The translations under genes and the position numbers were made by a program. A stretch of DNA of 20,527 nt from Candidatus Latescibacterota bacterium. Lineage in GTDB: Bacteria; Latescibacterota; UBA2968. Below the pieces are notes generated by a model. That model made no database searches. It was not told the origin of the DNA and saw only the letters and a list, made by a program, of their open reading frames with translations. This document shows, one piece after another, positions 121 to 20,479 of the stretch (position 1 is its first letter; every line of letters starts with the position of its first letter). Location: NCBI GenBank assembly GCA_038279365.1, contig JAYODI010000096.1, forward strand, positions 1 to 20,527, given 5' to 3'.

Positions 121-1980
121 TCAATTTGATTGTTTAATAAGCACTTCACAATCAATTTCTGAAACAGCTACCATCTGTTTTTCTCCATTTGGCCAAATGA
201 CCTGCAAAGACAAAACATCTGTGGCAGCGTCCAATCCAAATGTAATGGGCAATTCGACCTGCGATAAATAGCTGCGTGTGGGCATCACTTGACGGCGTTG
301 CATCTGATCATGTGTCTTCAATTCAACCCAAGCACCGATGGCATTTGGGTTGGGAAAATGACCTTCCAATTTAACCCGCAACCAGTGGTGTTTAAGTTGT
401 TGATCATTGCGCAACAACAAGGGAGAACCACCTATTTGAGTCAAAACCACATCGAGATCACCATCGGCATCAACATCGGCATAAGAAGCGCCACGACCAA
501 CGATCTGCTGAGTCAAGTCTCCTGTTGACACAACAGAAATGAACCCTGTCGTTTGATTGGGGCCAGCATTCCAAAAAAGTTGCGCAGCCTGTTTGAATGT
601 TTGGCTGGGATCCATCTTGTTGATTTCGTTTTCGATGTGACCATTGGCTTGAAGCATATCGAGTCGGCCATCGAGATCGTAGTCAAACAAAAACAACCCA
701 AACGTGAGCGCACGACGACTGGTCGCGCCAATGCCTGCACCAATGGCATCATCAACAAAAAAAGAAGGGTCATCTTGACTGACATAGACAGAAGTCATTT
801 CATTGGCAAAGTTGCCAATCATGAAGCCCAGATTTTGATCATTCCGAAAATGTGCCACATCAACACCCATTGCGCCAGTGGCATTGCCATCTGGGCCATA
901 AGCCAAACCATAAATTTCGCCAACTTCATCAAATGTACCATCTCTTTGATTGTGAAAGAAATAGTTTTTAACGGTATCGTTGGCAATAAATACATCCGAC
1001 CAACCATCTTGATCTGCATCAATAATTGCCAATGCCAGCGATTTGGCCTCGGGCAAGCCCGTTGCAGCATTCTGAATCTTTATACCACTTTCAGCAGACA
1101 CATCGGCAAACGTGCCATCCCCATTGTTGCGATACAGATAGGGAAAAGTGCCTTCGTAATTTTGTGGTGGGCCAAAAGCACGCCCCACGCCCGTGAGGCG
1201 AAAATCTAATTTTTGATCAATTTCTTTGGTCCAACGTACATAGTTGGTTACAAACAGATCCAGATCACCATCGTTGTCATAATCGAAAAAGCCCGCACTG
1301 GTACTCCATTCTTGATCTCGTCCAGCAACCCCAGCTTGATCGGTTATATCTATAAAACGACCCTTTTGGTTGTGAAACAGATGATTTTTTCCCACAGCCG
1401 TAAAAAAGATATCCGGCCATCCATTGCCATCATAGTCTGCAATGGCAACACCCATGCCATAAAAACTCACATCCAAACCAACCTGCTGGGTCACATTGTC
1501 AAATTGCCCGGCCCCATTGTTGCGATACAGTGCCATCGTGGGTTTGAATTTGGCTGGGGGGCGATGTGGCCAAGTGGATGAATTCACAAATAAAAGATCT
1601 TGGTCACCATCGTTGTCATAATCAAAAAAAGCCGTGCCCCCTCCCATCGTCTCTGGCAAAAGTTTGTCACCATAAGCGCCATTGAAATGCACAAAGTCAA
1701 TGCCCGCGGCCCGCGTGATATCGGTAAAGGTAACCTGAGGTACTGATATTTCTCGGGTAACCACTTCAGGTGCAGGGGCTTCTATAATCTGTTCGGGTAT
1801 TATTTCTTCAACTTCACGCGTGGCATAATATCCAATGGCAATCACAACAATAAGACTCCCAATAACAACCAACGACCACTTAAACGCCTTACCAATAATG
1901 GTATCGTCTTCAGGAACCCATTCCTCTTCGGAAGGATCCATCTCTTGAGTTGGTTTTTTTTGGGTCTCTTGCGTATTCAA
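121..1980 (-). CDS. CRTAC1-family protein (FG-GAP beta-propeller repeats + C-terminal ASPIC/UnbV domain) with N-terminal membrane anchor
   Basis: Repeated DxDxDGxxD motifs (DYDNDGDQDL, DYDGNGWPDI, DYDNDGDLDL, DADQDGWSDV, DYDLDGRLDM, DVDADGDLDV). The C-terminus (NAIGAWVEL...SYLSQVELPITFGL...VIWPNG) is ASPIC/UnbV-like, and WSLVVIGSLIVVIAIGYYA is a hydrophobic anchor. Start placed at TTG 1980, 8 nt from GGAGG (1989-1993); alternatives are TTG 1986 or ATG 1941. Confidence 0.85.
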   Translation of the reverse strand: MNTQETQKKPTQEMDPSEEEWVPEDDTIIGKAFKWSLVVIGSLIVVIAIGYYATREVEEIIPEQIIEAPAPEVVTREISVPQVTFTDITRAAGIDFVHFNGAYGDKLLPETMGGGTAFFDYDNDGDQDLLFVNSSTWPHRPPAKFKPTMALYRNNGAGQFDNVTQQVGLDVSFYGMGVAIADYDGNGWPDIFFTAVGKNHLFHNQKGRFIDITDQAGVAGRDQEWSTSAGFFDYDNDGDLDLFVTNYVRWTKEIDQKLDFRLTGVGRAFGPPQNYEGTFPYLYRNNGDGTFADVSAESGIKIQNAATGLPEAKSLALAIIDADQDGWSDVFIANDTVKNYFFHNQRDGTFDEVGEIYGLAYGPDGNATGAMGVDVAHFRNDQNLGFMIGNFANEMTSVYVSQDDPSFFVDDAIGAGIGATSRRALTFGLFLFDYDLDGRLDMLQANGHIENEINKMDPSQTFKQAAQLFWNAGPNQTTGFISVVSTGDLTQQIVGRGASYADVDADGDLDVVLTQIGGSPLLLRNDQQLKHHWLRVKLEGHFPNPNAIGAWVELKTHDQMQRRQVMPTRSYLSQVELPITFGLDAATDVLSLQVIWPNGEKQMVAVSEIDCEVLIKQSN

Positions 1981-1982
1981 AA

Positions 1983-4838
1983 TCAATTCCTCCGTTGTGC
2001 ATCAGCTTTGTCGGCCAAATTCATTGGGGGTTTAAGTTCAAACGATGCGGCTTGGCGCGTTTGGGTCCTTTCATAGGCCTCATTGCGACCCAAATCGTAA
2101 ATCACCACGGCCTCAGCCGCGTGGTTGGCTGCAGGATCTTTGCTGCGTGCCAAAACCAAAGCCCGATCGCGCGCATTGTCATCGGGTTTGTAGTCTTGAT
2201 ACAACGCCAAATGCATTTTGCCTTTTTCGTGATCACCCAACTGTCGATAAATGAGGCTCAAGTTATAATGCGCGGTCATATTTTCAGGGTCTAACTTCAA
2301 CGCCCGATCAAAATAACCCAATGCTTGATTTAAAAATTCCTCTTGCAAAACCTTATTCACGTCACCACGCTCTTGTTTGGCCCGCTCATAAATCGTCTGA
2401 CCCAGTTCATTGAGCAACTGATAATCTTGGCTAAAGTCAAATTCGCGCCGACGTGTCTCTTCATCATCACCATCCACAATGCTCTTAAAGTTGGCAATGG
2501 CCTCGTCGAGATATCCGTTTTGTTTATTCACCAAACCCGTAAACCAAGACACCGACCAAGGTGGTGCGGGAGGGTCAAAGCTTGCCGCGCGCTGCAAAGC
2601 TTCAATGGCTTTGTCTTCCACCGTACCTTGCGCAATATAAACCCGTGCCAAATTTAAGGGGCCATCGGGTCGTCCCAAAGCCTCCACCTGTGCAAATGCG
2701 GCTTCTGCTTGGCGCAGTTCGCCTTTGGTTTTGCCACCCTTGCGCAAAAGCCCAATACCATAATCGTTCCAACGCTGCCATTCTACAATGGACGATGGCA
2801 CATTTTGAACCGCCACATCCACACCCTTTACAGGAAATATCAGTTCATCTTTTGCCAAGGTCAAAATGGGCAAGTCATTGACATAATCATTGCCAAAAAC
2901 ATACTTCATATAAGTGGTATCAAACTTGCGATATTGCAAACGCACTTCAACCTTAACAGGTGCCTGAGCATCTTTGGGCACCTGCAACAAATAGTGCACC
3001 GCATCGGCAGCACCTGGTGGAATTTGGTGGTTGTATAAGGGCACAAAAATATCCTGTGCATTGCGCCGATCAATGCGATTGCCGTGGCGATCCAACACAT
3101 AGGCATTAACAAAATGTGACCACGGATCCACCGCATTGTCTTTGCCCATGCCACCACTGCGTCCAATAACGGCATCACCACAGGTCACCAAAATATCGAG
3201 CCAAATTTCATTCGAATCTGCCGTACCTTGTGTAAACAAGTGCCCCATTTTCATCGTTCGAATAATCACATCGAGCAAATAAGCGTTGCCAGGCATTAAA
3301 ACAGGTACCTCAGGGCGCAAGGGTGCAAATTGTTTGCCATCAATTTGCCCACCTTCTCTCAGGCTAAAAATATCAAGCCGCATCACACCGTCATTAAATT
3401 TGCGATGTGCTTCATTCACCCAATCTGGCAAATCCAAAATATGTGGAATAGCCGTATTGGCCGTTGGAAACATGTGGTCGTGTATTTTGGTCTCACCCGA
3501 TCCATCAAAATCTTTGGCCGAAAATTGATTCGAGTTTTCCAAACGCATATGGCACGTATTACAATCGTGCGTGGCTTTGGGTGGATAATAAAAGCTCGTA
3601 ATGCCATGACCAGACACCCCACTCAAATGATAGGCGTCATAGTGATTTTGTCCACGCAACCATTTGTACTTGTTGAGCTCTTTGGGCAAATGCACCTTGT
3701 GACAAGTGCCACAAAATTCTGCACTTTTATGCAGGGGTTTCAAAAATGTTTTTTTGTGCAACTCGGGTTTGGCCTTCACCAACTGCTGGTTGACCCATTG
3801 CAACGTAGGGTTTTTGCTAAAAGCAAAAGGATAGTGAACAGGTTCTTCAATGGTATAATCGCTGTTGCCACGCGCACTGTTTAGATGTGTAATGGCATGA
3901 CACACGGTGCAGGTGATGCCTGCTTGAGAGGTTGGATCATTCACATCATCAAAGTTGGGATCGTCAAACTTTCCCGAAAAAAACACCACAGGATCGTGGC
4001 ATCCTGCACAAAACCGAGACGCCTGCAAATCGCCATCGCGCTCCAAAGACACTTTGCGTGTTTCGCGCACTGAAAACAAATAGGGCGGATTGTTAAATGA
4101 ACTAAACCGATGCACACTATTGGCCCAGCCACGATGGCTGTCTTCGTGGCATTTTTGGCAATATTGATCGTTCATCAACACACGTTCAGGAATAAAATCA
4201 CCCGTAGCGGTACGCGCCAGAGAAGGAAAGAAATATTGCTCACCCGATTTGGGGCCCACCACACTCCAAGCACGAGGATCTTGAGCTTGCCAAATGAGCA
4301 TCACAACACCAAACACAGCAGCCACAGCGCCCCAGCGCAAACCAATACGCCATTTGATGCGTCGGCCTGCCAAACGATGCAGCACAAACAACCAAGCTGC
4401 CACAATCGGCGCAATCACATGTGCCCAATAAGCCGCAGAACGAACCGCTGGATCATGAACAACAACAACACCTTCCAACCGCGTCAACACAATGCCGCTG
4501 ATCAAAAGAATGAGTGCTGCAGCAAACAAACCATAACCCACCCTAACCGCACGTCGGTTGCGCCGGTTGTGGGCATTTTTGATATGGGCAATACCAAAAA
4601 TAATGATGGGCAAAACGATCAATGCACCCAACAACAAGTGCACAATGAACATATTCATATAAAACCAGTTTTGGTAGGTGCGTTCCGTAACCGCTTCCAT
4701 CACCGTCACACCGACCAGATAAACCGAATTGATGGTCAGCAAAGCAAAAAAACCAAACACCACAAACAGCAATTTTTTGAGCCTGTCACCAACGGCAGGC
4801 ACATATTTTTTACGACCATCTGGTATTTCCGAATTCAT
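1983..4838 (-). CDS. Membrane-bound multiheme c-type cytochrome (5 CxxCH) with N-terminal cytochrome-b-like transmembrane region and C-terminal TPR repeats
   Basis: CxxCH motifs at 4146-4160 (CQKCH), 3996-4010 (CAGCH), 3897-3911 (CTVCH), 3699-3713 (CGTCH) and 3549-3563 (CNTCH). About five N-terminal hydrophobic helices carry four His. The C-terminus is TPR-like (ALGYFDRALKLDPENMTAHYNLSLIYRQLG). Start placed at ATG 4838 with GGAGG at 4844-4848; the ORF track starts at 4865. Confidence 0.85.
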   Translation of the reverse strand: MNSEIPDGRKKYVPAVGDRLKKLLFVVFGFFALLTINSVYLVGVTVMEAVTERTYQNWFYMNMFIVHLLLGALIVLPIIIFGIAHIKNAHNRRNRRAVRVGYGLFAAALILLISGIVLTRLEGVVVVHDPAVRSAAYWAHVIAPIVAAWLFVLHRLAGRRIKWRIGLRWGAVAAVFGVVMLIWQAQDPRAWSVVGPKSGEQYFFPSLARTATGDFIPERVLMNDQYCQKCHEDSHRGWANSVHRFSSFNNPPYLFSVRETRKVSLERDGDLQASRFCAGCHDPVVFFSGKFDDPNFDDVNDPTSQAGITCTVCHAITHLNSARGNSDYTIEEPVHYPFAFSKNPTLQWVNQQLVKAKPELHKKTFLKPLHKSAEFCGTCHKVHLPKELNKYKWLRGQNHYDAYHLSGVSGHGITSFYYPPKATHDCNTCHMRLENSNQFSAKDFDGSGETKIHDHMFPTANTAIPHILDLPDWVNEAHRKFNDGVMRLDIFSLREGGQIDGKQFAPLRPEVPVLMPGNAYLLDVIIRTMKMGHLFTQGTADSNEIWLDILVTCGDAVIGRSGGMGKDNAVDPWSHFVNAYVLDRHGNRIDRRNAQDIFVPLYNHQIPPGAADAVHYLLQVPKDAQAPVKVEVRLQYRKFDTTYMKYVFGNDYVNDLPILTLAKDELIFPVKGVDVAVQNVPSSIVEWQRWNDYGIGLLRKGGKTKGELRQAEAAFAQVEALGRPDGPLNLARVYIAQGTVEDKAIEALQRAASFDPPAPPWSVSWFTGLVNKQNGYLDEAIANFKSIVDGDDEETRRREFDFSQDYQLLNELGQTIYERAKQERGDVNKVLQEEFLNQALGYFDRALKLDPENMTAHYNLSLIYRQLGDHEKGKMHLALYQDYKPDDNARDRALVLARSKDPAANHAAEAVVIYDLGRNEAYERTQTRQAASFELKPPMNLADKADAQRRN

Positions 4839-4863
4839 CAACGCCTCCGAACAACGATGTAGC

Positions 4864-4892
4864 AAAAAGAATGCAGAAAGATCTCTTCATTC
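4864..4892 (-). terminator. Weak terminator-like hairpin with U-tract between the 1068-aa gene and the cytochrome gene
   Basis: Minus strand reads GAATGAAGA-GATCTT-TCTGCATTC-TTTTT: a 9-bp stem with one mismatch, a 6-nt loop and 5 T. The stem is AU-rich and therefore weak. Confidence 0.3.
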
Positions 4893-4922
4893 CAATTTTA
4901 TTTTGGCCCACCCCAAACACCC

Positions 4923-7900
4923 TTAAGGTTTTGAAACAATGCGATTCTCATGGAGATAGAGTGGGCGAATCAAACGCAGTGCCGGACGTGTGTTGTATAT
5001 TTCTAAATAACGTTGGTGAATACCATCACGGGGAAAAACGTGTGGTGCTTCATAAGGATATTGTGGCATCTCATGGTAAGGCAAAGGTGCCACTGTTTGT
5101 GAAAACGCGGTATTGGCATCGCCATCTTTGGCCCACCCATCGACCATCAACAAATAATCGCGCCGCCAACCCTCCGCCAACTCAGGCAACACCTCCGCAT
5201 CAAATGCCAACTGCAATTCATCACCAGATCCCATAATGACCAACAAATCATCTACTTGATTCAAAAGGGTCTGCACCTGACCAAAGCACGTGTACATCCC
5301 AGGTGTCGGGTTCCAGTTCCAGTCATTAAAGGGACGAAAGTCACTGTAAACAAAATATTCGGGCTGTTTGCGCTGAGGGTGAATCACAACCTTTGAAAAA
5401 CCTCTAAAACCCAAATGAGCAGTTTGAGGAAGCATCTCTGTCAACCTTACCGATGGCGCACTCGGGTTTTCACCCAAGAAAATCTCATCCCAATAAACAC
5501 ATAAATTGGTCACAATGCGCACCTGCCGCGACGCACTCAAAAATTTGTCTGACAAATCAACGGAAATGGTCTTGGGTTTGCCTGCCGGAAGACCCATATC
5601 TGCAATCACAGTCTCCCAATCACCTTGTGCATTTTTCACCTGCAAATAAGGGAAAATTAAACCCTCGGGATTTTGTTGTCCCACATTCAAAAATGTACTG
5701 CCATCGGCCCAATCGACCCACCCATTCAAAATCATCACGGCCTGACCATCTTGCGCCACATGGCCAAAGTCCAGTTCCACATAATGCAACTCAGCCACAC
5801 CCGAATAATCTCGTGTAAATCCATCGGGATACGTTTTGTCTTTGGCCGTCAACTGGGCCAAAACATCTTGGCCTTTGTGATCCAAAGCCCGAATAGGATA
5901 CATGCGTTCTTCAACACCAAACAACCGAAACTCGGGAAACGGTGGCCCCTTAAACTTATCATTGGTAAAAACATCCACATCATCACGATGATCAATCGCA
6001 ATCAACTTAACCGCATCCAAAAAAGCAACTTCTCGCAACTCTTCTGTCACACGGATTTGAAACAGTCCATCTTTAGGGACCAGCGATTCGCCCGAAATTT
6101 GTACATATTCATCGTGATCAACCGGAAAATACTGACCATCGCCCGCACTTGCACCCAATGGTGCAACACCCAACACATCGGTAATAAACTCAAACTCTGA
6201 CCCATTCCAGGTAAAAATCATTGGGCACGACCCCGAAAGCCGTTGTGCCTCCTTATAAACATGTAACTGATTAGCCAGCTGCCGTGTTTCATTTTGAATC
6301 ATGCCATTGGGCCAAGTAATGCGCACCGCATCGGCTTGATCTTTATCGCCCAGCCCAAACAAAAGCGGCAGCCCGCGATAAATCTGCTTTTGATACTGTC
6401 TGCCGACCTTCACTTCAATTTCGGCACTGGGTGCAAGGGCCAAATTTTTAACCCCTTGCAAAGCCACGCGCAACCAGTGTTTGGCTTCTGTTCTGTTATC
6501 CAGTCGTTTTACCGCACCATCCCTATCCAACACGGCCAAATCTATGCGACCATCCCCATCAAAATCGGCAGCAACCCAATCGTGTGCAGTCACAAATTCT
6601 GCTGGTGTTTCCACACCACCAAATTTTCCCAAACCCAAATTGCGATATACACCATCACGAGCAACCAGTTCGGCAACCGCTCGATTTTCAAAATCGGCAA
6701 AAACAGCTGGTCCTCGCACATCGTTGGCCATTTTGTGAACAACAAAACCCGCATCTTGATCATTCATAAACAACACCACACCCGCATCACCCGCTCCAAC
6801 AAGATCTGTCCATCCATCGTGATTAAAATCAACAGCCAATACCTGTGACCCTGTTAGCTCTGGCAAATCTTGTGCGTCATATTTACCCGCCAACCCATCG
6901 CGATACAACACCCCAACACGATTGGCATATACCACAGCCAAATCCATTCCCTGTGTATCGGCCACCCAATCAAACTGCACACCCGCAACAGCTTCTCCAT
7001 CGACAAAAGGAAACGTCTCTGTCACATCAGAAAACCCAGCCGTGCCATTGTTGCGAAACAGTGCCGATGCATGACCCAACAAAAACAAATCCAGATCATA
7101 ATCGTGATCATAATCCAACCACACCGCACTGCGAAACTCTCGTTGGGGCAATGCCCTATCAACCTTTTTAAAAGCCCCATCAACATTGCGATAAAGCACG
7201 GCGCCTGAAGTTTGAATCACACACAAATCAATTGCACCATCGTTGTCAAAATCACTTGGTGCAACCGATACCATATCAACCACGCCTTCTAACCCACATT
7301 CTGTTTCTGTTTGGCCATTTAAAAAAACGGTTCCGCCCGTTTGTGACCACACCAACAAATCTGGAGTCAAATCACCATTGGCATCCAAAACAGCAAACCC
7401 ACTCATATTCACAGCCAACGTTTGTGCTTCAAATTTCCAAGCCGCTTGAGATCCTGTATCTTGTGCATGTTTGGGATCAATCGTTTCATAAATTTCCGAA
7501 TAAAAACTCCATTCCAAATCTTCGGCAACCGCATCACCCGCTTGTTCGGCCTTAATACGGCGAAACGTTTCCATTGCTGTTTTGGCATCGTCCATTCGTT
7601 TCACCTGGCGATATGCTGTGGCCAACTGAAAATGAGGGCCTGCCAAATAAGGATCCAATTGTGCCGCTTTGGCAAAATGTGTAATTGCCAGATCGTTTTT
7701 CTTCTCCAACTTATACAGCACACCCAAATTGTAATGGGTCATGGCTTCATTGGGCACCAATTGAATCATACCTTCCAATTGTTCAATTGCTTTTTCATAT
7801 TGCGACAAACGTTTATACGCAATGCCCAAATTAAACCACGTATGCGGAATGGATGGATCTTGTTTTTGCGCTTTTTCAAGTTCGGCAATACCTTCAGGCT

Positions 7901-8129
7901 CTTGCCCTGCACGCATGAGTGCCAGCCCATAATTGATCTGCTCTCGAACCGAATCAGGGGCCAAGTCGAACGCCTTTTTAAACTCGCCCACAGCCTCGTA
8001 TTGTGTTGCAGAATTTTCATAAAACGCCTTGCCCAAATTGCGATGTCGCCACAAGGCCTCATCTGTCGTTTCAGAAAACACCACCAAAGGCAAACACCAC
8101 AACACCATCAAAAACCCATACAATCTCAT
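4923..8129 (-). CDS. Exported TPR + FG-GAP + ASPIC/UnbV multidomain protein with a long C-terminal domain of unknown function
   Basis: Signal-peptide-like N-terminus (MRLYGFLMVLWCLPLVVFS). About five TPR units (TWFNLGIAYKRLSQYEKAIEQLE; THYNLGVLYKLEKKNDLAITHFAKA). FG-GAP motifs (DFDNDGAIDL, DYDHDYDLDL, DFNHDGWTDL, DFDGDGRIDL), a UnbV-like segment (PLLFGLG...VRITWPNG), then about 435 aa starting SGSCP. ATGA overlap with the upstream gene at 8126-8129. Confidence 0.85.
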   Translation of the reverse strand: MRLYGFLMVLWCLPLVVFSETTDEALWRHRNLGKAFYENSATQYEAVGEFKKAFDLAPDSVREQINYGLALMRAGQEPEGIAELEKAQKQDPSIPHTWFNLGIAYKRLSQYEKAIEQLEGMIQLVPNEAMTHYNLGVLYKLEKKNDLAITHFAKAAQLDPYLAGPHFQLATAYRQVKRMDDAKTAMETFRRIKAEQAGDAVAEDLEWSFYSEIYETIDPKHAQDTGSQAAWKFEAQTLAVNMSGFAVLDANGDLTPDLLVWSQTGGTVFLNGQTETECGLEGVVDMVSVAPSDFDNDGAIDLCVIQTSGAVLYRNVDGAFKKVDRALPQREFRSAVWLDYDHDYDLDLFLLGHASALFRNNGTAGFSDVTETFPFVDGEAVAGVQFDWVADTQGMDLAVVYANRVGVLYRDGLAGKYDAQDLPELTGSQVLAVDFNHDGWTDLVGAGDAGVVLFMNDQDAGFVVHKMANDVRGPAVFADFENRAVAELVARDGVYRNLGLGKFGGVETPAEFVTAHDWVAADFDGDGRIDLAVLDRDGAVKRLDNRTEAKHWLRVALQGVKNLALAPSAEIEVKVGRQYQKQIYRGLPLLFGLGDKDQADAVRITWPNGMIQNETRQLANQLHVYKEAQRLSGSCPMIFTWNGSEFEFITDVLGVAPLGASAGDGQYFPVDHDEYVQISGESLVPKDGLFQIRVTEELREVAFLDAVKLIAIDHRDDVDVFTNDKFKGPPFPEFRLFGVEERMYPIRALDHKGQDVLAQLTAKDKTYPDGFTRDYSGVAELHYVELDFGHVAQDGQAVMILNGWVDWADGSTFLNVGQQNPEGLIFPYLQVKNAQGDWETVIADMGLPAGKPKTISVDLSDKFLSASRQVRIVTNLCVYWDEIFLGENPSAPSVRLTEMLPQTAHLGFRGFSKVVIHPQRKQPEYFVYSDFRPFNDWNWNPTPGMYTCFGQVQTLLNQVDDLLVIMGSGDELQLAFDAEVLPELAEGWRRDYLLMVDGWAKDGDANTAFSQTVAPLPYHEMPQYPYEAPHVFPRDGIHQRYLEIYNTRPALRLIRPLYLHENRIVSKP

Positions 8130-10626: not shown

Positions 10627-10641
10627 ACCTTATTCATCTCC

Positions 10642-12375: not shown

Positions 12376-12379
12376 ACCT

Positions 12380-14812
12380 TTACCCTTCTGCACCGTCAAT
12401 TCGATACACTTTTTCAATCAATTCATTTTGGCTTTCTTTAATTTCATAAAGTTTGTTGGGCGCCACATTTTCAAAGCGCTGTTCAATGCCCGAACGCGGC
12501 CAACGCACAATGATCTCATCAATGCCATCATGCTCACCCAACCCAAAGTGCAACCGCAATGTGCTTTGGGCACCATATCCATCGCCCAAAATCACCTCAC
12601 GCAGCAATTGCATCTGACCCGATTTTAAAATCACACGTGCACCCACCCCGTCGCGATTGCTGCCCTTTTCAATCTCACTTGCAGCACCCACCAACTTAAA
12701 CTGCACCCAATTGCCACTGGATGCAATCTCATTGCGCAACAGCGCATGACGCGCCGTTGAGGCTGCAACCGCCAAATCCATTACCCCACGATTCCAAAAG
12801 TCGGCCACGGCGGTGCCACGGCTATTGAGCTCCAAATCGGCACCATAACCCCGCCCGATCTCTTTGAATGTGCCATCGCCGTTGTTACGCAAATAACGAT
12901 TGCGCTCCCAACCATGCCATGAACGCGAACCAAAATAGTTGGGATCAAACAAATAACCCGTTTTGTAAAGCTTTTGTTCACTCACCACATTGTTCAAAAA
13001 ATCCAGTTCAATCTCTGTGCCTTTTTCATTGTAAACCCACCCATTGGCCGCATACAAATCTTGCCACCCATCATTGTCAAAATCCACCATATTGGTGCCC
13101 CAAAACCAACCCGGAGGATTGGCATTGGCATGCCATGTCACATCTTCAAATGTGCCATCACCTTTGTTGCGCAACAGCGTATTGCCCGAAGCCATATCTT
13201 GAAAAACTTGCACAAACTGAAAACCTGATTGCTGTAATATTTGAAAATAAAGTGGCATATCCGTTATCCACACACCTTGCCGCCACGAATTGACCATATA
13301 TCGCAACACCGTTGGCCACTCGGCAAACCAACCTTCTTCAGAGCGAATGTGCGCTACATAAAAATCCAAATGCCCATCATTGTCATAATCGCCAATGGTT
13401 GAACTCATTCCGGCACCATAGGCCAATGTACCCGTCTCCACCGTCACATCATCAAATGTGCCATCGCCATTGTTTTTATACAGCGTTTTGCGACCAAAGT
13501 CATTCGACACATACAAGTCGGGATACCCATCGTCATTATAATCGCCAAATGCTGTGCCCAAACACAACCCCACTTCACCCACACCGGCTTCTTCTGTCAC
13601 ATTGGTAAACGTGCCATCACCATTGTTTTTATACAGCTGATTTGGCTGGCCATTACGCGCATAAAACGTAGTGGGAATCTGCTCGCGAGGTTCCAAATAA
13701 CGCCCCACATACAAATCGAGAAATCCGTCGTTGTTATAATCGGCCCAAGAAGCCACCGTCGTACAATTGTCAGGATCAATGCCCGATTGGGCCGTCACAT
13801 CGACATAACGATCGCCACGTTTTTCAAACAACTGATTGGGTTCAAACGTGCGACTCACAAAAAAGTCTTGATCGCCATCATTGTCATAATCGGCAAACAG
13901 CCCCACACTCACACCACTCAGGTTCGACAACCCCACCGATGCCGTCACATCGTCAAACTGTCCATTGCCCAAATTGCGAAACAACCGTGATGCCACACCG
14001 TCGGGCACAAACAAATCGCAAAACCCATCACCGTCATAATCGGCCGCCGTGATGCCCGCCGGACCATATCGCAACATGCCAAACTTGAGCTCTTGCGTGA
14101 GAAATTCAGGATAATATTCATTTTTAAAGTCAATGCCCGTAGCGGGTGCCACATCCACAAAAAGGGGACGAGAATTAATCACCCGATCACCTTCTATCAA
14201 TTCCACCTGTTGAATGAGATAGGAGGCTTCGTCATTGCGATCAAAATGTACCCGAAAAAGGGCCCGATCAATGCCCGCTTGCATCTCGCCTTTGGGTGTG
14301 CCAATTAATTCAAAACGCACAGTGGCCACCACATTGTCCGAGCCTTGCCAGTCTTCCAAACGATGAATGTAGAGCCCCACTTCTTCTATCGATTCAAACC
14401 CTTCCAAATAATCTCGCCACTGGGCAAGTGCAGCTTGTGGATGAGATATTTCACCGCCTGCTTGAAAGGCATAAATGCGCACCCCATCGCGATCATCTGT
14501 CAGTTTAAGATCATTGAGCCCCAGTGCGCGCCCTTTAAATGACGGTGCATAAAGGGATTCAACCGTGGCCAAATCGCGAGTTTGCATGGCCTTGGCCATT
14601 TTGCTCAACGTCACAACAGCTTCGCGTCCCGTATGAAAAAAGGCCCACCCCACCCGATCGATATAACTCACCGTAGCCCAATAAATCAAAAACAAAACAA
14701 CCGCCGCCCCTCCCAACCACCACTTGCGCGACAATTTTTTGCGAGTCGGTTCTGAACCATTCACATTTGCATTTTTCTCAGACCCTTGTGTGGGTTTTGT
14801 CGTTTCTGCCAT
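12380..14812 (-). CDS. Membrane-anchored CRTAC1-family protein with an extra N-terminal domain (possible SnoaL/NTF2-like fold)
   Basis: Basic stretch followed by a TM helix (RKKLSRKWWLGGAAVVLFLIYWATV), an insert of about 150 aa, FG-GAP motifs (DYDGDGFCDL, DYDNDGDQDF, DYNNDGFLDL, DYNDDGYPDL, DYDNDGHLDF, DFDNDGWQDL) and a UnbV-like C-terminus (SNRDGVGARV...LRLHFGLG...VRWPRSG). AAGGTG lies upstream of ATG 14812. Confidence 0.87.
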   Translation of the reverse strand: MAETTKPTQGSEKNANVNGSEPTRKKLSRKWWLGGAAVVLFLIYWATVSYIDRVGWAFFHTGREAVVTLSKMAKAMQTRDLATVESLYAPSFKGRALGLNDLKLTDDRDGVRIYAFQAGGEISHPQAALAQWRDYLEGFESIEEVGLYIHRLEDWQGSDNVVATVRFELIGTPKGEMQAGIDRALFRVHFDRNDEASYLIQQVELIEGDRVINSRPLFVDVAPATGIDFKNEYYPEFLTQELKFGMLRYGPAGITAADYDGDGFCDLFVPDGVASRLFRNLGNGQFDDVTASVGLSNLSGVSVGLFADYDNDGDQDFFVSRTFEPNQLFEKRGDRYVDVTAQSGIDPDNCTTVASWADYNNDGFLDLYVGRYLEPREQIPTTFYARNGQPNQLYKNNGDGTFTNVTEEAGVGEVGLCLGTAFGDYNDDGYPDLYVSNDFGRKTLYKNNGDGTFDDVTVETGTLAYGAGMSSTIGDYDNDGHLDFYVAHIRSEEGWFAEWPTVLRYMVNSWRQGVWITDMPLYFQILQQSGFQFVQVFQDMASGNTLLRNKGDGTFEDVTWHANANPPGWFWGTNMVDFDNDGWQDLYAANGWVYNEKGTEIELDFLNNVVSEQKLYKTGYLFDPNYFGSRSWHGWERNRYLRNNGDGTFKEIGRGYGADLELNSRGTAVADFWNRGVMDLAVAASTARHALLRNEIASSGNWVQFKLVGAASEIEKGSNRDGVGARVILKSGQMQLLREVILGDGYGAQSTLRLHFGLGEHDGIDEIIVRWPRSGIEQRFENVAPNKLYEIKESQNELIEKVYRIDGAEG

Positions 14813-14881
14813 AGGTCACCTTAATATTTAATGAATAGGATTGGGTTGCTGTGTGAATAAACCAAGAGACGGTTTTTAATC

Positions 14882-16399
14882 TTAAGACCGTGTGGCAGGA
14901 GGTGTCACACTCATACCCGAGGTCACGGCTTTGGCCACTTGCATGGCCGACACAATCACAGGCGTAATGCCCCCACCCGGTTGTGTCCAATGCCCTGTAA
15001 AAAAGAGGTTTTTTATAGGGCCTGTAATGCCCACACGGTGCTCACCAAGCTGATCGGGTGACATTTCCCAACCCAGCATGGCCCCTTGATAATTGCGTGT
15101 AAAACGATAGGATGTCTGCGCCGATGCACTCAACTTCACCACCATCTTTTGTTGAATACCCGGAACAATTTTTTCCAAATGATCCAAAATATAACGCTCA
15201 ACAGACGCCTTATGTGATGCCCAATCGGTCACTTTGTAATAATCCATATCCAGCACCTTTTGAATGATCATCACATGCCCACCCTTGGGTGCCATTTGAG
15301 GTTCAAAAAGCGTGGGGATAAAAATCTTAAACTTGAGCCCGTTTTGCGCCAACAAATTTGGATCCCATTCATTCCAATAATACCCCTGTATGTCATAAAG
15401 CGTTTTTGTCGGTACATCTTTTAAACCGATGTGCGTTAAAAAACAGGGGTGGGTGGGTCGCAACGAGCGTATATGGCGCACATAAGCAGGATCGACTTGG
15501 TCGCCATCCAACATATTTTCTAAAGTCTGCAATAAGTCGGCATTCGAAACGACCACAGGCGTTTGAACGCGTTTGGTAAAACGGTGTTGTTTGGGACCTG
15601 TTTCAATTTCAACACCACATACCCGATCCTTTTCAGATAGGATTTTTACAACACCAGACTGCATCAAAATATGGCCGCCACGCGCTTCGAAACACCGAGC
15701 CAACTCGTCGGCAAAAACCTGAGACCCACCAACGGGATAATAGTTGCCCAAAAAATACGATAGCCGAAGCATCGAATCAAAAACAAAAGACGTGCGATTA
15801 GGCGGAGAACCCCAATGCGGGCCATCGGCAACAAGAAGCAATTTGAGTTTTGGGTCTTCAAAATGTGTGTCGAGCACTTGGTCGACTGTGAGATTGCGAT
15901 AAGGATCGAGACGCGGCGTATCACGCCCGCGAAAAAAATAGAGCAAACCCAGTCGATAGGTTTCATTGACAACTTTGAAAAATCGATCCAGCGCAGATGC
16001 TTCTTTAGGGAATTCGGCTTTGAGTTTGGCAATATAGGTATCAAAATCGGCGGGTACTGAAAACTGGGAACCATCGGGAAATCGAAAATGGTCAACCGGA
16101 TCCATCTTGACCCAGTCTGTTGTCACACCCAATTCTCTAAGGAGTGTGCCAGTAATAGAAGAGGGATTGCCTAAGAGAGGATAAAAGTGGCTGGCCGCAT
16201 CAAACGTATATCCTTTGCGGCGAAAGGTGCTGCAATAACCACCAACGACATAATGTTGTTCCACCAAGAGCACATGCAAACCGCTTTTGGCAAGCAAATT
16301 GGCACACGTCAACCCACCAATGCCTGCACCAATGACCACCGCATCATACCGATCATTTGGCCCTTCGCGAAGTCGAAGCCCCTTGAAAGCGCGTTTCAT
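14882..16399 (-). CDS. FAD/NAD(P)-dependent oxidoreductase, phytoene desaturase (CrtI)/carotenoid isomerase/retinol saturase family
   Basis: N-terminal dinucleotide-binding motif (YDAVVIGAGIGG...LLVEQHYVVGGYCSTFRRKGYTFDAA), mid-protein YYPVGGSQVFADEL and VVSNAD, and C-terminal IKNLFFTGHWTQPGGGI. ATGA overlap with the upstream gene at 16396-16399. No export signal. Confidence 0.85.
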   Translation of the reverse strand: MKRAFKGLRLREGPNDRYDAVVIGAGIGGLTCANLLAKSGLHVLLVEQHYVVGGYCSTFRRKGYTFDAASHFYPLLGNPSSITGTLLRELGVTTDWVKMDPVDHFRFPDGSQFSVPADFDTYIAKLKAEFPKEASALDRFFKVVNETYRLGLLYFFRGRDTPRLDPYRNLTVDQVLDTHFEDPKLKLLLVADGPHWGSPPNRTSFVFDSMLRLSYFLGNYYPVGGSQVFADELARCFEARGGHILMQSGVVKILSEKDRVCGVEIETGPKQHRFTKRVQTPVVVSNADLLQTLENMLDGDQVDPAYVRHIRSLRPTHPCFLTHIGLKDVPTKTLYDIQGYYWNEWDPNLLAQNGLKFKIFIPTLFEPQMAPKGGHVMIIQKVLDMDYYKVTDWASHKASVERYILDHLEKIVPGIQQKMVVKLSASAQTSYRFTRNYQGAMLGWEMSPDQLGEHRVGITGPIKNLFFTGHWTQPGGGITPVIVSAMQVAKAVTSGMSVTPPATRS

Positions 16400-17607
16400 A
16401 CCGTCTTATTTTCTTGGGGAGGGTTGCGCCCATAACTTTCGTGTGCCGCAACAAACTCACCACTGGCAATCGCCGCACCCATAGACAACTCACCCGCCAA
16501 GAGTGTGGCCGCAATAATTTCTGCAAATTTGGGAGCATGGCCGGCTCCAAAACAACCCAACATCTCCAAGCATTCTCGGCTGCTGCCCAACCCCGTGCCC
16601 CCCCCAACCGTGGCCACCGTAAGCGATGGCAAAGTCACACTGGCATACAAATCACCGTCATCTGTCAATTCAAAACTTGTAATGCCCACAGACGCATTGA
16701 CCACATTGGCAACATCTTGACCACAGGCAATAAACAACGCCGTGAGACCATTGGCATAATGGCCGTTGTAACCCATTGCATTGGCCTGAATATGCCCCAA
16801 CACCGTATGACGCCACACCTTGCACAAATCTTGTGGTGTGGTGTGCAAATACATACGTACCTGCCGAGCAGACAACAAAGCACCTGCCACAACTTTTTTG
16901 CCCTTACCGCCTGCAAACAAAAACCCACTGGCTCGTTTTTCAGAATTGAGACCACTAAAAATAAAAAAGTCCGTTGCTTTGCTGTTTTCCAATAACCATT
17001 GGCAGGCACAATCTGCCGCCTTCATAATCATGTTCATACCCTGGGCATCGGCTGTATAAAAACAAAAATTCACCTGTACTTCTCGCCCGACAGGATAACA
17101 TTCAACCCGCAACAACTTGCCGTAACGGGTGGTAGACTCTGCCAAACTTTTCAATTGCTCAAAATCGTTTTGTAACTGTTGTGCAAAAACATGCGCTTCG
17201 GCAACGGTATCAAAAACAAACACAGGTGCAATGCGATTTTCATCTTGATAAATATGTGCAGAAACCCCACCACAGCGCGTTAAAAGCACCATGCCACGCT
17301 CATATGAACGCACCAGCGCACCTTCTGTGGTGGCCAAAGGCACATAAAAAGTACCCTGAGCATGGTCACCATTCACCTTGAGTGGCCCTGCCAGGCCAAC
17401 AGGCATTTGCACCGCCCCAATCGGATTTTCAATATTGCCCCGCATCGCCTCGGTGGGAATGCTACAATTGGCAATATATGGCAAAGAAACACCTGTTTTT
17501 TGTTCGACCCAATTGCGGCGAAACGTGACGTCTTCCAAAGTATAACCCTGCGCCATCATACGAGGCACCAAATCGCCCATCTTGGTTTTTTTTGCTTCGG
17601 TAGACAA
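16396..17607 (-). CDS. Class I (NADPH-type) hydroxymethylglutaryl-CoA reductase-like protein
   Basis: HMGR signatures: NIENPIG, PLATTEGALV (catalytic Glu), STTRYG, DAQGMNM, ACGQDVANV (catalytic Asp), TVGGGT, LAGELS and AAH (catalytic His). TTG start with AGGAG at 17614-17618. Confidence 0.88.
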   Translation of the reverse strand: MSTEAKKTKMGDLVPRMMAQGYTLEDVTFRRNWVEQKTGVSLPYIANCSIPTEAMRGNIENPIGAVQMPVGLAGPLKVNGDHAQGTFYVPLATTEGALVRSYERGMVLLTRCGGVSAHIYQDENRIAPVFVFDTVAEAHVFAQQLQNDFEQLKSLAESTTRYGKLLRVECYPVGREVQVNFCFYTADAQGMNMIMKAADCACQWLLENSKATDFFIFSGLNSEKRASGFLFAGGKGKKVVAGALLSARQVRMYLHTTPQDLCKVWRHTVLGHIQANAMGYNGHYANGLTALFIACGQDVANVVNASVGITSFELTDDGDLYASVTLPSLTVATVGGGTGLGSSRECLEMLGCFGAGHAPKFAEIIAATLLAGELSMGAAIASGEFVAAHESYGRNPPQENKTV

Positions 17608-17682
17608 TTTAAACTCCTAAAAGCACATCAAAAATGAATCATATAAATCATCGTCTATACAATAAAATAAATCGTTTTGTAT

Positions 17683-18891
17683 TTAAACTTTTGAAAGCAC
17701 AAGCGCGCACATATTGCCATCAAGTCCAAATGACAAGATCAAGCCATTTTGCATCGGTAGGGTGCAATTTTCTTTTTTTGCCATTGGCAAATGCAAACCG
17801 TCTTCCAATGTGTTCAACCCACAAATGCCTGGCAACACACCTTGATGCATATGTTCAAGTAACGCACCCGTTTGCAACGCACCCGATGCCCCCAACGTTT
17901 CGCCCAACGCCGACTTGATTGCCGTAATGGGCAAGGATGCCGTTTGATCTCCAAACATAGCGGCAATCGCTTCGGCCTCACACCGATCTCCCATGGGGCT
18001 GCCACAAGCCGATGCACTGATGCAATCAATGTCTTCAGGATTTAACTGGGCATGAGCCAATGCGGCACGAATGGCCATGCCCATCGCTGCGCATAATTTG
18101 TCGGCATTTTGACCCCGATTCGGATCAAAAGCGGTGCCGTATCCTTTAATCTCGCCAATAATTGAGGCCCCTCGCAGATGTGCCTGCTCAGCATCTTCCA
18201 ACATTAAAAATGCAGCCCCTTCTCCTAAAATCAACCCCGTTCGACCCGCATCAAAGGGCACAGCCGTTTCGACCCGGCTGCTCAACAATTTGGCCCGCTC
18301 AAAACCAAATAACGCTTCAAAACACAACTCTTCGGCACCACCGGCCAACAACATAGAAATACGCCCACTTTTGATCAAATCGGAAGCATAACCTATGGCC
18401 TGTAACCCCGAACTGGCACCTGTGGACAAGGTCGAATTAAGACCACGAAGGTTGTGCCAAATAGCCGTTTGTCCCGTTGCTGCATTGATCACCGTATTGG
18501 CAAAATCAAGCGGTTTAACAAAACGAGGCCCTCGCGTAATGGCCATTTGATCAAATGCCCCAATGGTGTGTACACTGCTAAACACAGTTCCCAAAACGAT
18601 GCCCACATCCTGTTCGGCACGCATCTCAGGTGTCCAGTTGCTGTCTTTAAGCGCCAACTGTGCCGCACTTGCCGCCAACTGAGCAATGCGATCCAATGGG
18701 CGCAAGTTTACATCGCCCAAATAATGACGCGCATTAAAATTAGGCACTTCACCGCCCATGTGCTGCGTTTCAAAAAACCCAATGGAACCCAAACCACATT
18801 GCCCCGCACACAAAGCTTTGTGTAACGTATCTGCTTGATCAGACAAAGAAGAAATGATGCCTTTTCCTGTAATCACCACGCGTTGTGACAT
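17683..18891 (-). CDS. Catalytically inactive beta-ketoacyl synthase homolog (chain-length-factor-like subunit)
   Basis: KAS fold motifs are present (RVVITG, LAGGAEE, PFD, GEGAAFLMLE, IKGYG, LSFGLDGN). The triad positions read Ala (18415-18417), Ser (18010-18012) and Glu (17899-17901) instead of Cys/His/His. Start placed at ATG 18891, 1 nt after the upstream TAA; the ORF track starts at 18921. Confidence 0.85.
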   Translation of the reverse strand: MSQRVVITGKGIISSLSDQADTLHKALCAGQCGLGSIGFFETQHMGGEVPNFNARHYLGDVNLRPLDRIAQLAASAAQLALKDSNWTPEMRAEQDVGIVLGTVFSSVHTIGAFDQMAITRGPRFVKPLDFANTVINAATGQTAIWHNLRGLNSTLSTGASSGLQAIGYASDLIKSGRISMLLAGGAEELCFEALFGFERAKLLSSRVETAVPFDAGRTGLILGEGAAFLMLEDAEQAHLRGASIIGEIKGYGTAFDPNRGQNADKLCAAMGMAIRAALAHAQLNPEDIDCISASACGSPMGDRCEAEAIAAMFGDQTASLPITAIKSALGETLGASGALQTGALLEHMHQGVLPGICGLNTLEDGLHLPMAKKENCTLPMQNGLILSFGLDGNMCALVLSKV

Positions 18892-18892
18892 A

Positions 18893-20116
18893 TTAAGGTG
18901 AATCCTTAAATTTTTTGACAATCAACGACGCATTCACCCCACCAAAAGCATACGCATTGTTCATCGCAGCAAATACTTTGTGGTCACGAGCTTCATTGGG
19001 CACACAATCTAAATCACACTCAGGATCGGGTTCTTCCAAATTGATTGTGGGTGGAATTCGGTCTGTGTAGGCCGCCAAAGCGCACACCGCTGTTTCAATG
19101 GCTGAAGCGGCTCCCATTGTATGCCCCAACATCGACTTGATTGAACTGATGGGCACTTGCCCAGAACGATTGCCAAACACCTTTTTGACTGCCCGTGTTT
19201 CGTGCATATCGTTGGTCGGTGTGCCTGTACCATGTGCGCTAATATAGCTGATCTCTTCTCTTTTTACACCGCTTTCAAAAAGCGCATTTTCCATTGCCTT
19301 AACCGACCCTGCCTCTTCGGGATGCCCACCCGTCATATGAAAAGCATCACACGACAGCCCATAACCCGCAATTTCGGCATAAATGCGGGCATTGCGCGCC
19401 AAGGCACGTTCCAAAGGTTCCAACACCAAAACACCTGCACCTTCGGCAGGAATCATACCCTTTCGGTTTTTGTCAAACGGCTGACACCGTTCAGGTGCAA
19501 TCGCTTTGAGCTGGGCAAAACCAGAGTAGGTGATGCGCGAAAACGAATCGGCCCCACCCGCCAATGCCAAATCGGCCTGCCCCAAACGCAACATATCAAA
19601 CGCATGAGAAATGGCATAAGTACCTGCTGCACAGGCCGCCGGGATCATGGTATTGCGTCCCATAAACTGCAATTCGGCAGCCATATAAGCAGCAATATGA
19701 TGACATGGATAAAGGGTAAGCATCTCATCACCTGTCGCCTGAAGGTTGTCAGCGACAAAATGATCATCAAACTGTTCAATCTGATTGGGTTCACCCGATG
19801 TGGTTCCCATAGAGATGGCCGCCCGAGTCAAATCGAGCGTGCTCACATCTACTTGGGCATCTTGCAAAGCAAGTTTTGCGGCTGCAATGCCCAGCTGTGA
19901 TGTTCGCCCAATCTTTTGTGCCTCAAGCGTTTGAACATAAGTGGCAGGTGAAAAAGCCTTAACCTCGCCCCCAACATGCACCGCATAATTGCTGGTATCA
20001 AACGATTCGACAGGGCTGATGCCACTTTGACCCTTGAGCAAAGCCGACCAAAAGTCTTGGCACCCAGTACCAATAGAGGTAAAAACACCAATGCCTGTAA
20101 TAACAACACGTTTCAT
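18893..20116 (-). CDS. Beta-ketoacyl-ACP synthase, FabF/KAS II family (probable type II PKS/FAS ketosynthase)
   Basis: MKRVVITGIG start and an intact triad: PAACAAG (Cys 19631-19633), ISAHGTGT and KSMLGHTMGAA. Also PPTINL and NNAYAFGGVNA. ATG 20116 with GAGGT at 20122-20126; the ORF track starts at 20128. Confidence 0.92.
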   Translation of the reverse strand: MKRVVITGIGVFTSIGTGCQDFWSALLKGQSGISPVESFDTSNYAVHVGGEVKAFSPATYVQTLEAQKIGRTSQLGIAAAKLALQDAQVDVSTLDLTRAAISMGTTSGEPNQIEQFDDHFVADNLQATGDEMLTLYPCHHIAAYMAAELQFMGRNTMIPAACAAGTYAISHAFDMLRLGQADLALAGGADSFSRITYSGFAQLKAIAPERCQPFDKNRKGMIPAEGAGVLVLEPLERALARNARIYAEIAGYGLSCDAFHMTGGHPEEAGSVKAMENALFESGVKREEISYISAHGTGTPTNDMHETRAVKKVFGNRSGQVPISSIKSMLGHTMGAASAIETAVCALAAYTDRIPPTINLEEPDPECDLDCVPNEARDHKVFAAMNNAYAFGGVNASLIVKKFKDSP

Positions 20117-20131
20117 CTCTAACCTCAAATT

Positions 20132-20380
20132 CTATTTCGCAGCCAAATATTTCTGAACCAAATCGACAGAGTCCTGAAGCGTTTTTATGTTGGCAAATTC
20201 TTCTTCGGGCACGATCAAATCAAATTCACTTTCCAAATCAACAGAAATTTCAAGCATCGTCAAAGAATCCAAACCCAAATCATCCTTATAGGACGCTTTG
20301 TCGCCAATTTGACTGGGGTCAATATTGGCAGCATTTGAAATAAACCCTTTAATTTGGTTTCTAATTTCTTCCGAATCCAT
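20132..20380 (-). CDS. Acyl carrier protein
   Basis: 82-aa acidic protein with the phosphopantetheine motif DLGLDSL and a typical LESEFDL.VPEEE..NIKTLQD tail. ATG 20380 with AAGGAG at 20388-20393. The 33-aa extension in the ORF track lies upstream of this RBS and reads as AT-rich non-coding sequence. Confidence 0.93.
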   Translation of the reverse strand: MDSEEIRNQIKGFISNAANIDPSQIGDKASYKDDLGLDSLTMLEISVDLESEFDLIVPEEEFANIKTLQDSVDLVQKYLAAK

Positions 20381-20451
20381 AAAAATTCTCCTTGTAAGAG
20401 CAAAATATAATTGAGATAAGAAAATACCATGAAAAGCACTTGTTACAAAAT

Positions 20452-20479
20452 AAATTAAAAGAACAAAAAAATAGGTCAA
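20452..20479 (-). promoter_or_regulatory. Putative sigma70-type promoter for the cluster
   Basis: TTGACC (20479-20474), a 16-nt spacer and TAATTT (20457-20452) in the AT-rich region upstream of the ACP gene. A perfect TTGACA also lies at 20515-20510 but has no good -10. Confidence 0.35.

Follow-up and report, generated by a model that had tools for sequence, protein, structure and literature searches.

As judged by sequence comparison, the closest described relative of the gene system analysed here is Cluster I of the anammox bacteria, KustE3603-3608, which encodes amxACP, amxFabZ, amxFabF2, amxFabFmut, a phytoene-dehydrogenase homologue and a B12 radical-SAM protein (PMC4790861; bioRxiv 10.64898/2026.05.19.726425). 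According to the accessible text of the preprint, amxFabF2 and amxFabFmut were shown to form a heterodimer resembling a ketosynthase (KS) and its chain length factor (CLF); it decarboxylates malonyl-acyl carrier protein (ACP), gives only acetyl- and acetoacetyl-ACP in vitro and prefers C6-C8 probes, and the product of Cluster I is described there as unproven even in anammox bacteria (bioRxiv 10.64898/2026.05.19.726425). Our subject is the window, i.e., the whole stretch of 20,527 bp that was analysed, which is an entire contig (C107) from an uncultured salt-marsh bacterium of the Latescibacterota. It encodes a cassette of ACP, KS, CLF, a 3-hydroxy-3-methylglutaryl coenzyme A (HMG-CoA) reductase (HMGR)-family enzyme and a CrtI-like flavoenzyme, followed by an extracytoplasmic module of FG-GAP/UnbV propellers, tetratricopeptide repeat (TPR) proteins and a membrane cytochrome. 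The gene system is real and conserved, with members in several phyla, and comparison of the loci makes it very probable that its two halves are functionally coupled.

A sample of 301 Planctomycetota genomes added 14 genomes with loci of the Cluster I type. In loci L114 and L115 the order is ACP, FabA/Z, KS, CLF, CrtI-like, B12 radical-SAM. The ACP, KS, CLF and CrtI-like genes of the window stand in the same order, with identities (tblastn) of 32-33%, 55%, 37% and 35%, respectively, the last over its full length (E 6e-89), and the second catalytic histidine is a glutamate in both CLFs. The window cassette is therefore a syntenic relative, with the HMGR gene at the place of the FabZ and B12 radical-SAM genes. 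Pfam searches gave no FabA/FabZ or MaoC match in the 12 window proteins, and no Radical_SAM or B12-binding match in these or in 14 scanned proteins of contig C169 (see below), whereas L114 has both; in turn, the 20-kb surroundings of L114 and L115 gave no HMGR, propeller or cytochrome match to the 12 window proteins and 10 accessory proteins (tblastn). Cluster I is called unique to ladderane producers in the accessible preprint text (bioRxiv 10.64898/2026.05.19.726425), whereas the window-type cassette is spread over Latescibacterota, Acidobacteriota, Nitrospinota, Zixibacteria and Poribacteria. An earlier note on this DNA had missed the synteny with the published Cluster I; no paper on the whole gene combination was found.

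The biosynthetic cassette

The 12 open reading frames (ORFs) all lie on the minus strand and are tightly packed across the window; ORF calls and Pfam agree with the earlier note in their number, common orientation and named domains. Stop and start codons overlap by four nucleotides at 16396-16399 (ATGA), 9883-9886 (TTGA) and 8126-8129 (ATGA), as the note had read, and also at 1983-1986 (TTGA), a fourth overlap that we add. The ACP/KS, KS/CLF, U810/U591 and U591/TPR gaps are 15, 1, 4 and 15 nt, within the 1-15 nt noted earlier, and the largest gaps, 75 nt (CLF/HMGR), 69 nt (CrtI/U810) and 84 nt (TU1068/cytochrome, assuming that the cytochrome starts at ATG 4838, with GGAGG upstream), agree with the stated maxima of 69-84 nt.

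The ACP (82 amino acids, 20132-20380; PF00550, E = 1.8e-10) has an LGLDSL phosphopantetheine-site motif and starts at ATG 20380 after an AGGAG. Of the 61 related loci that extend 3.5 kb or more upstream, 54 have an ACP homologue ahead of the KS. The KS (407 amino acids, 18893-20116) is FabF-like (PF00109, 1.4e-42; PF02801, 4.2e-35), and its Cys162-His-His triad is invariant in all 61 aligned sequences, the window KS included. The partner subunit (402 amino acids, 17683-18891) matches the Pfam KS domains with E-values of 3.9e-31 and 5e-22, and has Ala, Ser and Glu at the triad positions; in an alignment of 66 CLFs none has the cysteine, and the second histidine is replaced by Glu in 63 and by Asp in three. 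The locus thus contains the three parts expected of a KS/CLF system: a subunit with an intact triad, an adjacent paralogue without it and a dedicated ACP with its serine site. The best Protein Data Bank (PDB) match of the KS is 9s5h_B (477 bits), ahead of the best FabF (324), 6kxd_A (Iga11; 320) and 1tqy_A (244), while that of the CLF is 9s5h_C (257 bits), with the same His-to-Glu change. Entries 9s5h and 9s5i are probably the amxFabF2/amxFabFmut heterodimer; the accessible preprint text gives no PDB code. Two CLF-like genes are present in locus L024.

The HMGR-family protein (403 amino acids, 16396-17607) matches PF00368 over profile positions 3-368 of 368 (362.8 bits, E = 2.6e-108) and retains the C-terminal histidine as well as the motifs ENPIG, TTEGALV, DAxGMNM and GQD, which are invariant in 15 sequences. 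Its best PDB match is an archaeal class-I enzyme, 6hr7 (3.3e-94). Against the NCBIfam equivalog TIGR00533 it scores 348.9 bits, below the cut-off of 441.8, and its cis-loop reads S-E-K-R instead of the D-K-K of solved class-I enzymes. The genome, which is 98.5% complete, contains no match to HMG-CoA synthase (PF01154), and its best match to mevalonate kinase (TIGR00549) reaches 94.2 bits against a cut-off of 163, so that a reading of the gene as part of a mevalonate pathway was rejected.

Natural fusions provide the best evidence for what the enzyme may do. P0121 and P0122 are single CLF + HMGR proteins whose HMGR part is 63-65% identical to that of the window; the amino-terminal half of P0121 is 50% identical to the window CLF. 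P0126 and P0139, of a more distant clade (43-48% identity), combine AMP-binding, (PP-binding) and HMGR domains in the layout of a carboxylic acid reductase, and P0159 joins WS/DGAT_C to HMGR. These fusions suggest that the HMGR domain reduces thioesters bound to a carrier and that the resulting alcohol is the substrate of an acyltransferase. Reduction of an ACP-bound thioester is thus the likely role of the window enzyme, and the reductive release put forward in the earlier note gains support from the CLF-HMGR and AMP-binding/PP-binding/HMGR fusions and from a genome with neither HMG-CoA synthase nor a true mevalonate kinase. Elsewhere in the series P0123-P0240, HMGR domains are also fused to PilZ, GT1/trehalose-synthase-like, APH/EcKinase and DUF3419 domains, a diverse set outside the mevalonate pathway. 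Two HMGR copies occur in L083, and genome G043 has two HMGR orthologues on separate contigs.

The CrtI/CrtISO-family FAD oxidoreductase (505 amino acids, 14882-16399; Amino_oxidase/CrtI family, 1.3e-20) starts within the ATGA that ends the HMGR gene. It scores 162.5 bits against TIGR02734 (crtI_fam), below the cut-off of 238.1, and matches the CrtI structure 4dgk at only 2.1e-21; Pfam finds neither CrtB nor CrtE in the window. Of the 73 related loci that extend 3.2 kb or more downstream, 71 have a homologue. In Angelobacter-type loci (L018, L022, L042, L044 and similar ones), a 337-residue protein with sigma-70 region-4/helix-turn-helix similarity is encoded between the HMGR and the CrtI-like enzyme.

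The extracytoplasmic module and its linkage to the cassette

A lack of conserved linkage of the two halves in other genomes was among the outcomes that, by the earlier note, would refute the idea of a single system, and such linkage was found, both as physical proximity in many loci with varied gene orders and as joint presence or absence across contigs. A scan for HMGR relatives, with one genome per species, gave at least 549 loci. The best 80 were examined; they are mostly from Acidobacteriota, with Nitrospinota, Zixibacteria, Poribacteria and others also represented. Among the 43 loci flanked on each side by 9 kb or more, a CrtI-like gene is present in 42, KS and CLF in 41 each and ACP in 39. 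Genes of the propeller set occur in 31 of the 43, all on the HMGR strand in 25 of these 31, and in 11 of the 31 at least one such gene is 50% or more identical to a window protein. Gene orders differ: U591-TPR-U592-TU1068 stands upstream of the ACP in some loci and cytochrome-U621 in others; propeller genes precede the ACP in L018, L022, L042 and L044 and follow the CrtI-like gene in many others. Two U810-like genes come directly after the CrtI-like gene in many loci, and where a U810-like gene lies downstream it starts less than 300 nt past the CrtI-like gene in 21 of 27 cases.

With U592 as the marker of the periplasmic module, an orthologue (66-77% identity) was found elsewhere in the genome in four of five genomes with propeller-less loci, in three of them about 19-58 kb away on apparently the same contigs. 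In a 201-genome sample of Acidobacteriota, the phylum of G042, HMGR orthologues (at least 53% identity) are present in six genomes and U592 (at least 57%) in seven; all six HMGR genomes also hold U592, on a different contig in four of them, and orthologues of a short-chain dehydrogenase/reductase (SDR)-acyltransferase described below occur in exactly the same seven genomes as U592. Among 41 relatives of the window genome, both sets are confined to the window's genus. The source assembly (G000) is a metagenome-assembled genome (MAG) of 6.03 Mb, 98.5% complete and 7.43% contaminated. Contamination of the bin as the origin of the locus was rejected in view of the equal G+C content of contig (46.46%) and genome (46.45%) and of the presence of parts of the cluster in both other genomes of the genus; in the sister genome the same genes are found at about 90% identity.

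The module contains five FG-GAP propellers with UnbV_ASPIC domains (E-values 8.8e-19, 9.8e-19, 1.1e-19, 4.2e-7 and 1.1e-17). N-terminal sequences and a hydropathy scan give signal-peptide-like N-termini for U591, TPR247, U592 and TU1068, and single N-terminal transmembrane (TM) anchors for U810 and U621. U810 (12380-14812) combines, according to Pfam, hydropathy and a fold model, its anchor with an NTF2/SnoaL-like domain and an FG-GAP/UnbV_ASPIC propeller. A relaxed Pfam scan of the regions without assignment gave only a weak SnoaL_2 match; folding followed, and residues 52-220 (approximately), between anchor and propeller, were modelled as an NTF2/SnoaL-like cone (pLDDT 86.6). The model has 248 Foldseek matches in the PDB at E<=1e-3, of which all listed ones that were inspected are NTF2-like; they include LinA, ketosteroid isomerases and scytalone-dehydratase-like proteins. 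The predicted fold often holds small hydrophobic ligands, without being diagnostic.

U591 (10642-12375), a secreted propeller, probably starts at ATG 12375, 4 nt past the U810 stop, and its homologues in nine loci of other phyla are 58-64% identical. The secreted TPR protein TPR247 (247 amino acids, 9883-10626; Pfam, N-terminal sequence) also stands between U591 and U592 orthologues in other phyla. The secreted propeller U592 (8126-9886) has a TTG start at 9886 that overlaps the TPR247 stop, with AAGGAGG upstream; the only PDB relative of the propellers by sequence is human CRTAC1 (9etn; 7.9e-22, to U592). TU1068 (4923-8129) is a secreted protein with, by Pfam, TPR and FG-GAP/UnbV parts, followed by an all-beta C-terminal region of 439 residues. 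In an alignment, the mean column identity of this region is 70%. Its model (pLDDT 66) gives Foldseek TM-scores of at most 0.24, while residues 110-260 or so resemble a CBM32/discoidin-like sandwich with middling VIA Z scores of 8-9.5, and the ESM Atlas yielded only unnamed clusters; this fold is common, and no function is therefore drawn from it.

CYT960 (1983-4838) is predicted from Pfam and hydropathy to be a membrane multihaem cytochrome c: five TM segments precede five CxxCH motifs, the presumed haem attachment sites, and are joined by a middle domain without assignment and C-terminal TPRs. The five CxxCH motifs and the TM residues His67 and His140 (numbered from ATG 4838) are invariant in four of four sequences, the three homologues being 36-37% identical. 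The start of U621 (121-1986), a TM-anchored FG-GAP/UnbV propeller, overlaps the cytochrome stop (TTGA), and it follows a cytochrome homologue in six loci (L029, L043, L047, L051, L057 and L075). Elsewhere in the source genome, contig C104 carries at 56764-83590 (L100, L101) an ORF of at least 8,940 codons that runs off the contig end and contains many FG-GAP/UnbV units 26-35% identical to the window propellers (tblastn).

The cluster is longer than the twelve-gene block of the earlier note, running onto another contig. Positions 1-55 of the window repeat, letter for letter, the final 55 bp of contig C169. Beyond this overlap, on the same strand, C169 encodes an SDR-like/PlsC acyltransferase and two ABC1/UbiB kinases with C-terminal TM helices, and further on several proteins without assignment, a ParA/MinD-like ATPase, an FAD enzyme, an RPE65-family oxygenase, two metallo-beta-lactamase-fold proteins and an aldehyde dehydrogenase. 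Families of the C169 type stand after CrtI-like or propeller genes in other phyla; near the cassette, the acyltransferase was counted in 38, the first ABC1 kinase in 20, the FAD enzyme in 13 and the RPE65 protein in 9 of the 80 loci, counts that are lower bounds, since the longest-ORF gene calls are rough in G+C-rich loci. This continuation and the recurrence of its families elsewhere indicate a cluster of about 37 kb, with the window as approximately its first half. Upstream of the ACP, the sister genome has a 620-bp gap, beyond which stand unrelated genes (PhoD, CN-hydrolase, PhyH, a histidine kinase and a sigma-54 response regulator); the cassette therefore begins at the ACP. On C169, at 7133-14264 (L093), three proteins of 450, 429 and 1125 amino acids appear to have an N-terminal domain of some 90 residues in common and adjoin the ParA/MinD-like ATPase and the two UbiB kinases; none has a Pfam name, and the ESM Atlas gave only unnamed clusters for the 450-residue protein.

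RNA libraries contain sequence of this organism: four salt-marsh metatranscriptome runs yielded contigs that match pieces of both halves with 99% identity or more and, in several cases, span gene junctions, namely the ACP/KS, KS/CLF, HMGR/CrtI and TPR247/U592 junctions, while parts of the window have no such cover. A joint of position 814 to 12854, skipping 12,039 nt and seen in two runs, has only 22 letters on its shorter side and was set aside as a likely propeller-repeat or assembly artefact. Promoter-like and terminator-like matches in the window are not in excess (34 against 30.9 in shuffled sequence, and 26 against 25.0). On the minus strand at 20443-20463, some 65-85 nt ahead of the ACP start, the window and the sister genome share an identical 21-nt block between diverged flanks, a candidate promoter element; no sigma-54 -24/-12 consensus was seen by eye upstream of the ACP. 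The sister genome encodes, 4-7 kb before the ACP, a histidine kinase and a sigma-54-dependent response regulator (L003, contig C24 of G002, 11555-14264), and near the cassette in other phyla a LuxR-type response regulator is present in 18 loci and a histidine kinase in eight.

Proposed pathway and alternatives

By analogy with the characterised anammox homologue, the KS and the catalytically dead CLF would form a heterodimer acting on the dedicated ACP. On the same basis, they would self-prime by decarboxylation of malonyl-ACP and make a short or medium acyl chain. The HMGR-family enzyme would then reduce the ACP thioester, giving an aldehyde or alcohol, a step to which the natural fusions and the absent mevalonate pathway point, and the translationally coupled CrtI-family flavoenzyme may desaturate, saturate or isomerise the chain. 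Downstream, the SDR-acyltransferase and the two UbiB kinases may esterify and traffic the lipid. The extracytoplasmic module, with its anchored NTF2-propellers, secreted FG-GAP/UnbV propellers, TPR proteins and five-TM pentahaem cytochrome, is co-inherited with the cassette and would most likely bind the lipid or perform redox chemistry on it on the external side of the membrane.

Our best explanation as a whole, a lipid cassette with a periplasmic module acting on the lipid, is put forward with confidence that falls only slightly short of even. A reduced, esterified lipid as the product is a tentative assignment, and action of the periplasmic module on the cassette product, such as the processing or display suggested in the earlier note, is possible, if rather doubtful. 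The most far-reaching version, in which HMGR-fold enzymes are an unrecognised class of carrier-thioester reductases and the supercluster makes a hitherto undescribed lipid, a reduced, flavoenzyme-modified short or medium chain that is esterified by the SDR-acyltransferase, handled by the UbiB kinases and passed to the periplasmic machine, is unlikely to hold in full.

Several observations weigh against this explanation. The product and the biochemistry of the system are themselves inferred. The window and the recurrent neighbour families of the 80 loci contain no ketoreductase, dehydratase, enoylreductase, acyltransferase or thioesterase domain of the polyketide type (Pfam); together with the acetyl- and acetoacetyl-ACP made by the nearest characterised KS/CLF and its C6-C8 preference, the lack of the three reducing-cycle enzymes also speaks against the polyene that the earlier note had envisaged. 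Positions that we take to be the HMG-binding residues of human HMGR, contacting the carboxylate and hydroxyl groups, are kept or conservatively changed in the window enzyme, so that a short, HMG-like dicarboxylate would suit the enzyme no less than an acyl chain. Folds of the NTF2 and CBM-like kinds are generic. The join of C169 to C107 is supported by the 55-bp overlap and synteny, and so is a probable one. Genome G165 has the propeller and acyltransferase genes and no HMGR; G043 has two HMGR cassettes and only a 33%-identical relative of U592; the Poribacteria genome G247 has only U810-like genes, with no U592 orthologue at E<=1e-100. The co-occurrence counts come from related genomes, which are not independent samples, and carry no P-value. 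None of the metatranscriptome contigs listed crosses the CrtI/U810 gap, and such contigs, in which DNA carry-over is possible, cannot prove a single transcript.

The alternative that survives best, though we think it rather unlikely, reverses the emphasis: the propeller/TPR/cytochrome machine would be the point of the system, for instance as a redox or binding complex, and the cassette would supply it with a lipid, cofactor or anchor. The linked UbiB kinases, a family associated with the handling of quinones and lipids, fit this, as do the five TM helices and two invariant histidines of the cytochrome, such as a quinol- or lipid-facing domain might have. The propellers are 58-67% identical between phyla, unusually high for secreted proteins, and G165 keeps them and the acyltransferase, with no HMGR. 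Conversely, G043 has two cassettes without a U592 orthologue, and the papers found give no substrate or function for any FG-GAP/UnbV protein. The linkage evidence is the same as for our explanation, and sequence cannot separate the two.

That the enzyme is a true HMG-CoA reductase is improbable. It would make mevalonate or an analogue from HMG-CoA or an HMG-like ACP thioester, with KS, CLF and ACP providing acetoacetyl-ACP, and the product would be a small diol-acid. The full-length PF00368 match, the kept or conservatively changed catalytic and HMG-contact positions, the in vitro products of the closest characterised KS/CLF and the lack of ketoreductase, dehydratase and enoylreductase genes all agree with this. 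It is countered by a genome without HMG-CoA synthase or mevalonate kinase above cut-off, by the score below the equivalog cut-off and by the fusions to CLF, adenylation/carrier and wax-synthase domains, which point to carrier-bound acyl substrates and alcohol acylation.

Slightly less probable still, and already disfavoured, is the idea that the halves are unrelated neighbours on a shared mobile island. The genes are patchy, being confined to the window's genus among the 41 relatives, yet 63-72% identical to those of Acidobacteriota, which suggests horizontal transfer of a large block, and in 12 of the 43 loci with full flanks no propeller gene lies within 10 kb. Unrelated passengers would, however, hardly account for a co-occurrence that holds with the genes on different contigs, for gene orders that vary between lineages or for tight junctions in some genomes, such as the 2-nt gap between aligned segments in L016; the G+C content of the window equals that of the genome, and no integrase or transposase was noticed among the scanned proteins. 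A ladderane-type lipid cluster as in anammox bacteria is by far the least probable reading: ACP, KS, CLF and CrtI-like genes are homologous to those of Cluster-I-type loci and in the same order, and antiSMASH 'ladderane' clusters in bacteria other than anammox have been described in genome-mining papers, but the window has an HMGR in place of B12 radical-SAM and FabZ genes, and Cluster I itself, in the accessible text, has no proven product.

If the lipid-cassette explanation is right, HMGR genes in bacteria without a mevalonate pathway acquire a testable role, and Cluster I would belong to a wider lipid-synthesis family that extends to soil and sediment phyla, some of whose organisms may be more amenable to study. 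Bacterial FG-GAP/UnbV (CRTAC1-like) propellers would gain a first function and a defined biosynthetic partner, possibly with a bearing on enediyne UnbV. Since the relatives, from a scan with at least 549 loci, are mostly Acidobacteriota MAGs, the lipid of this system could be common in soils.

Comparison with known systems

Besides Cluster I, four kinds of described system share parts with the locus. Type II polyketide synthases (PKSs) and highly reducing KS-CLF systems (actinorhodin, 1tqy; ishigamide Iga11/Iga12, 6kxd) likewise have a discrete ACP and a KS/CLF pair; the window differs in having no cyclase, aromatase, ketoreductase or dehydratase genes and a KS nearest to FabF-like matches. 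CLFs of the actinorhodin type have Gln at the cysteine position, whereas the window CLF has Ala. With class I HMG-CoA reductases (6hr7; plant and human enzymes) the window protein shares its full-length PF00368 match and motifs, but its genome has no mevalonate pathway, its cis-loop is SEKR and not DKK, and its gene lies between CLF and flavoenzyme and is fused to CLF in some genomes.

Reductive chain release is known from carboxylic acid reductases, terminal R domains and fatty acyl-ACP/CoA reductases paired with wax synthase. The route proposed here, from carrier thioester to aldehyde or alcohol and on to acylation, would be similar, but with a reductase of the HMGR fold instead of the SDR fold; the search made on this point listed no paper linking the terms 'HMG-CoA reductase-like' or 'HMGR-like' with carrier-protein release. 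Enediyne UnbV (E4) and CRTAC1/ASPIC proteins share the FG-GAP propeller and UnbV_ASPIC domain with the window proteins, whereas the window has five paralogous propellers together with TPR proteins and a cytochrome, and those of the U810 type carry, in addition, a TM anchor and an NTF2-like domain. The enediyne PKS (PKSE) that the earlier note had given as the context of UnbV is not present: Pfam finds no type-I PKS (PKSE) or other multidomain PKS among the 12 genes, only discrete KS, CLF and ACP.

The earlier note had named no characterised pathway with this gene set. In the literature searched, no paper on KS/CLF together with HMGR and UnbV was found, the UnbV papers inspected only list the domain, and both the HMGR step and the coupling of the cassette with a propeller/cytochrome module were absent. 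The biosynthetic core is a variant of the Cluster-I/type-II KS-CLF kind.

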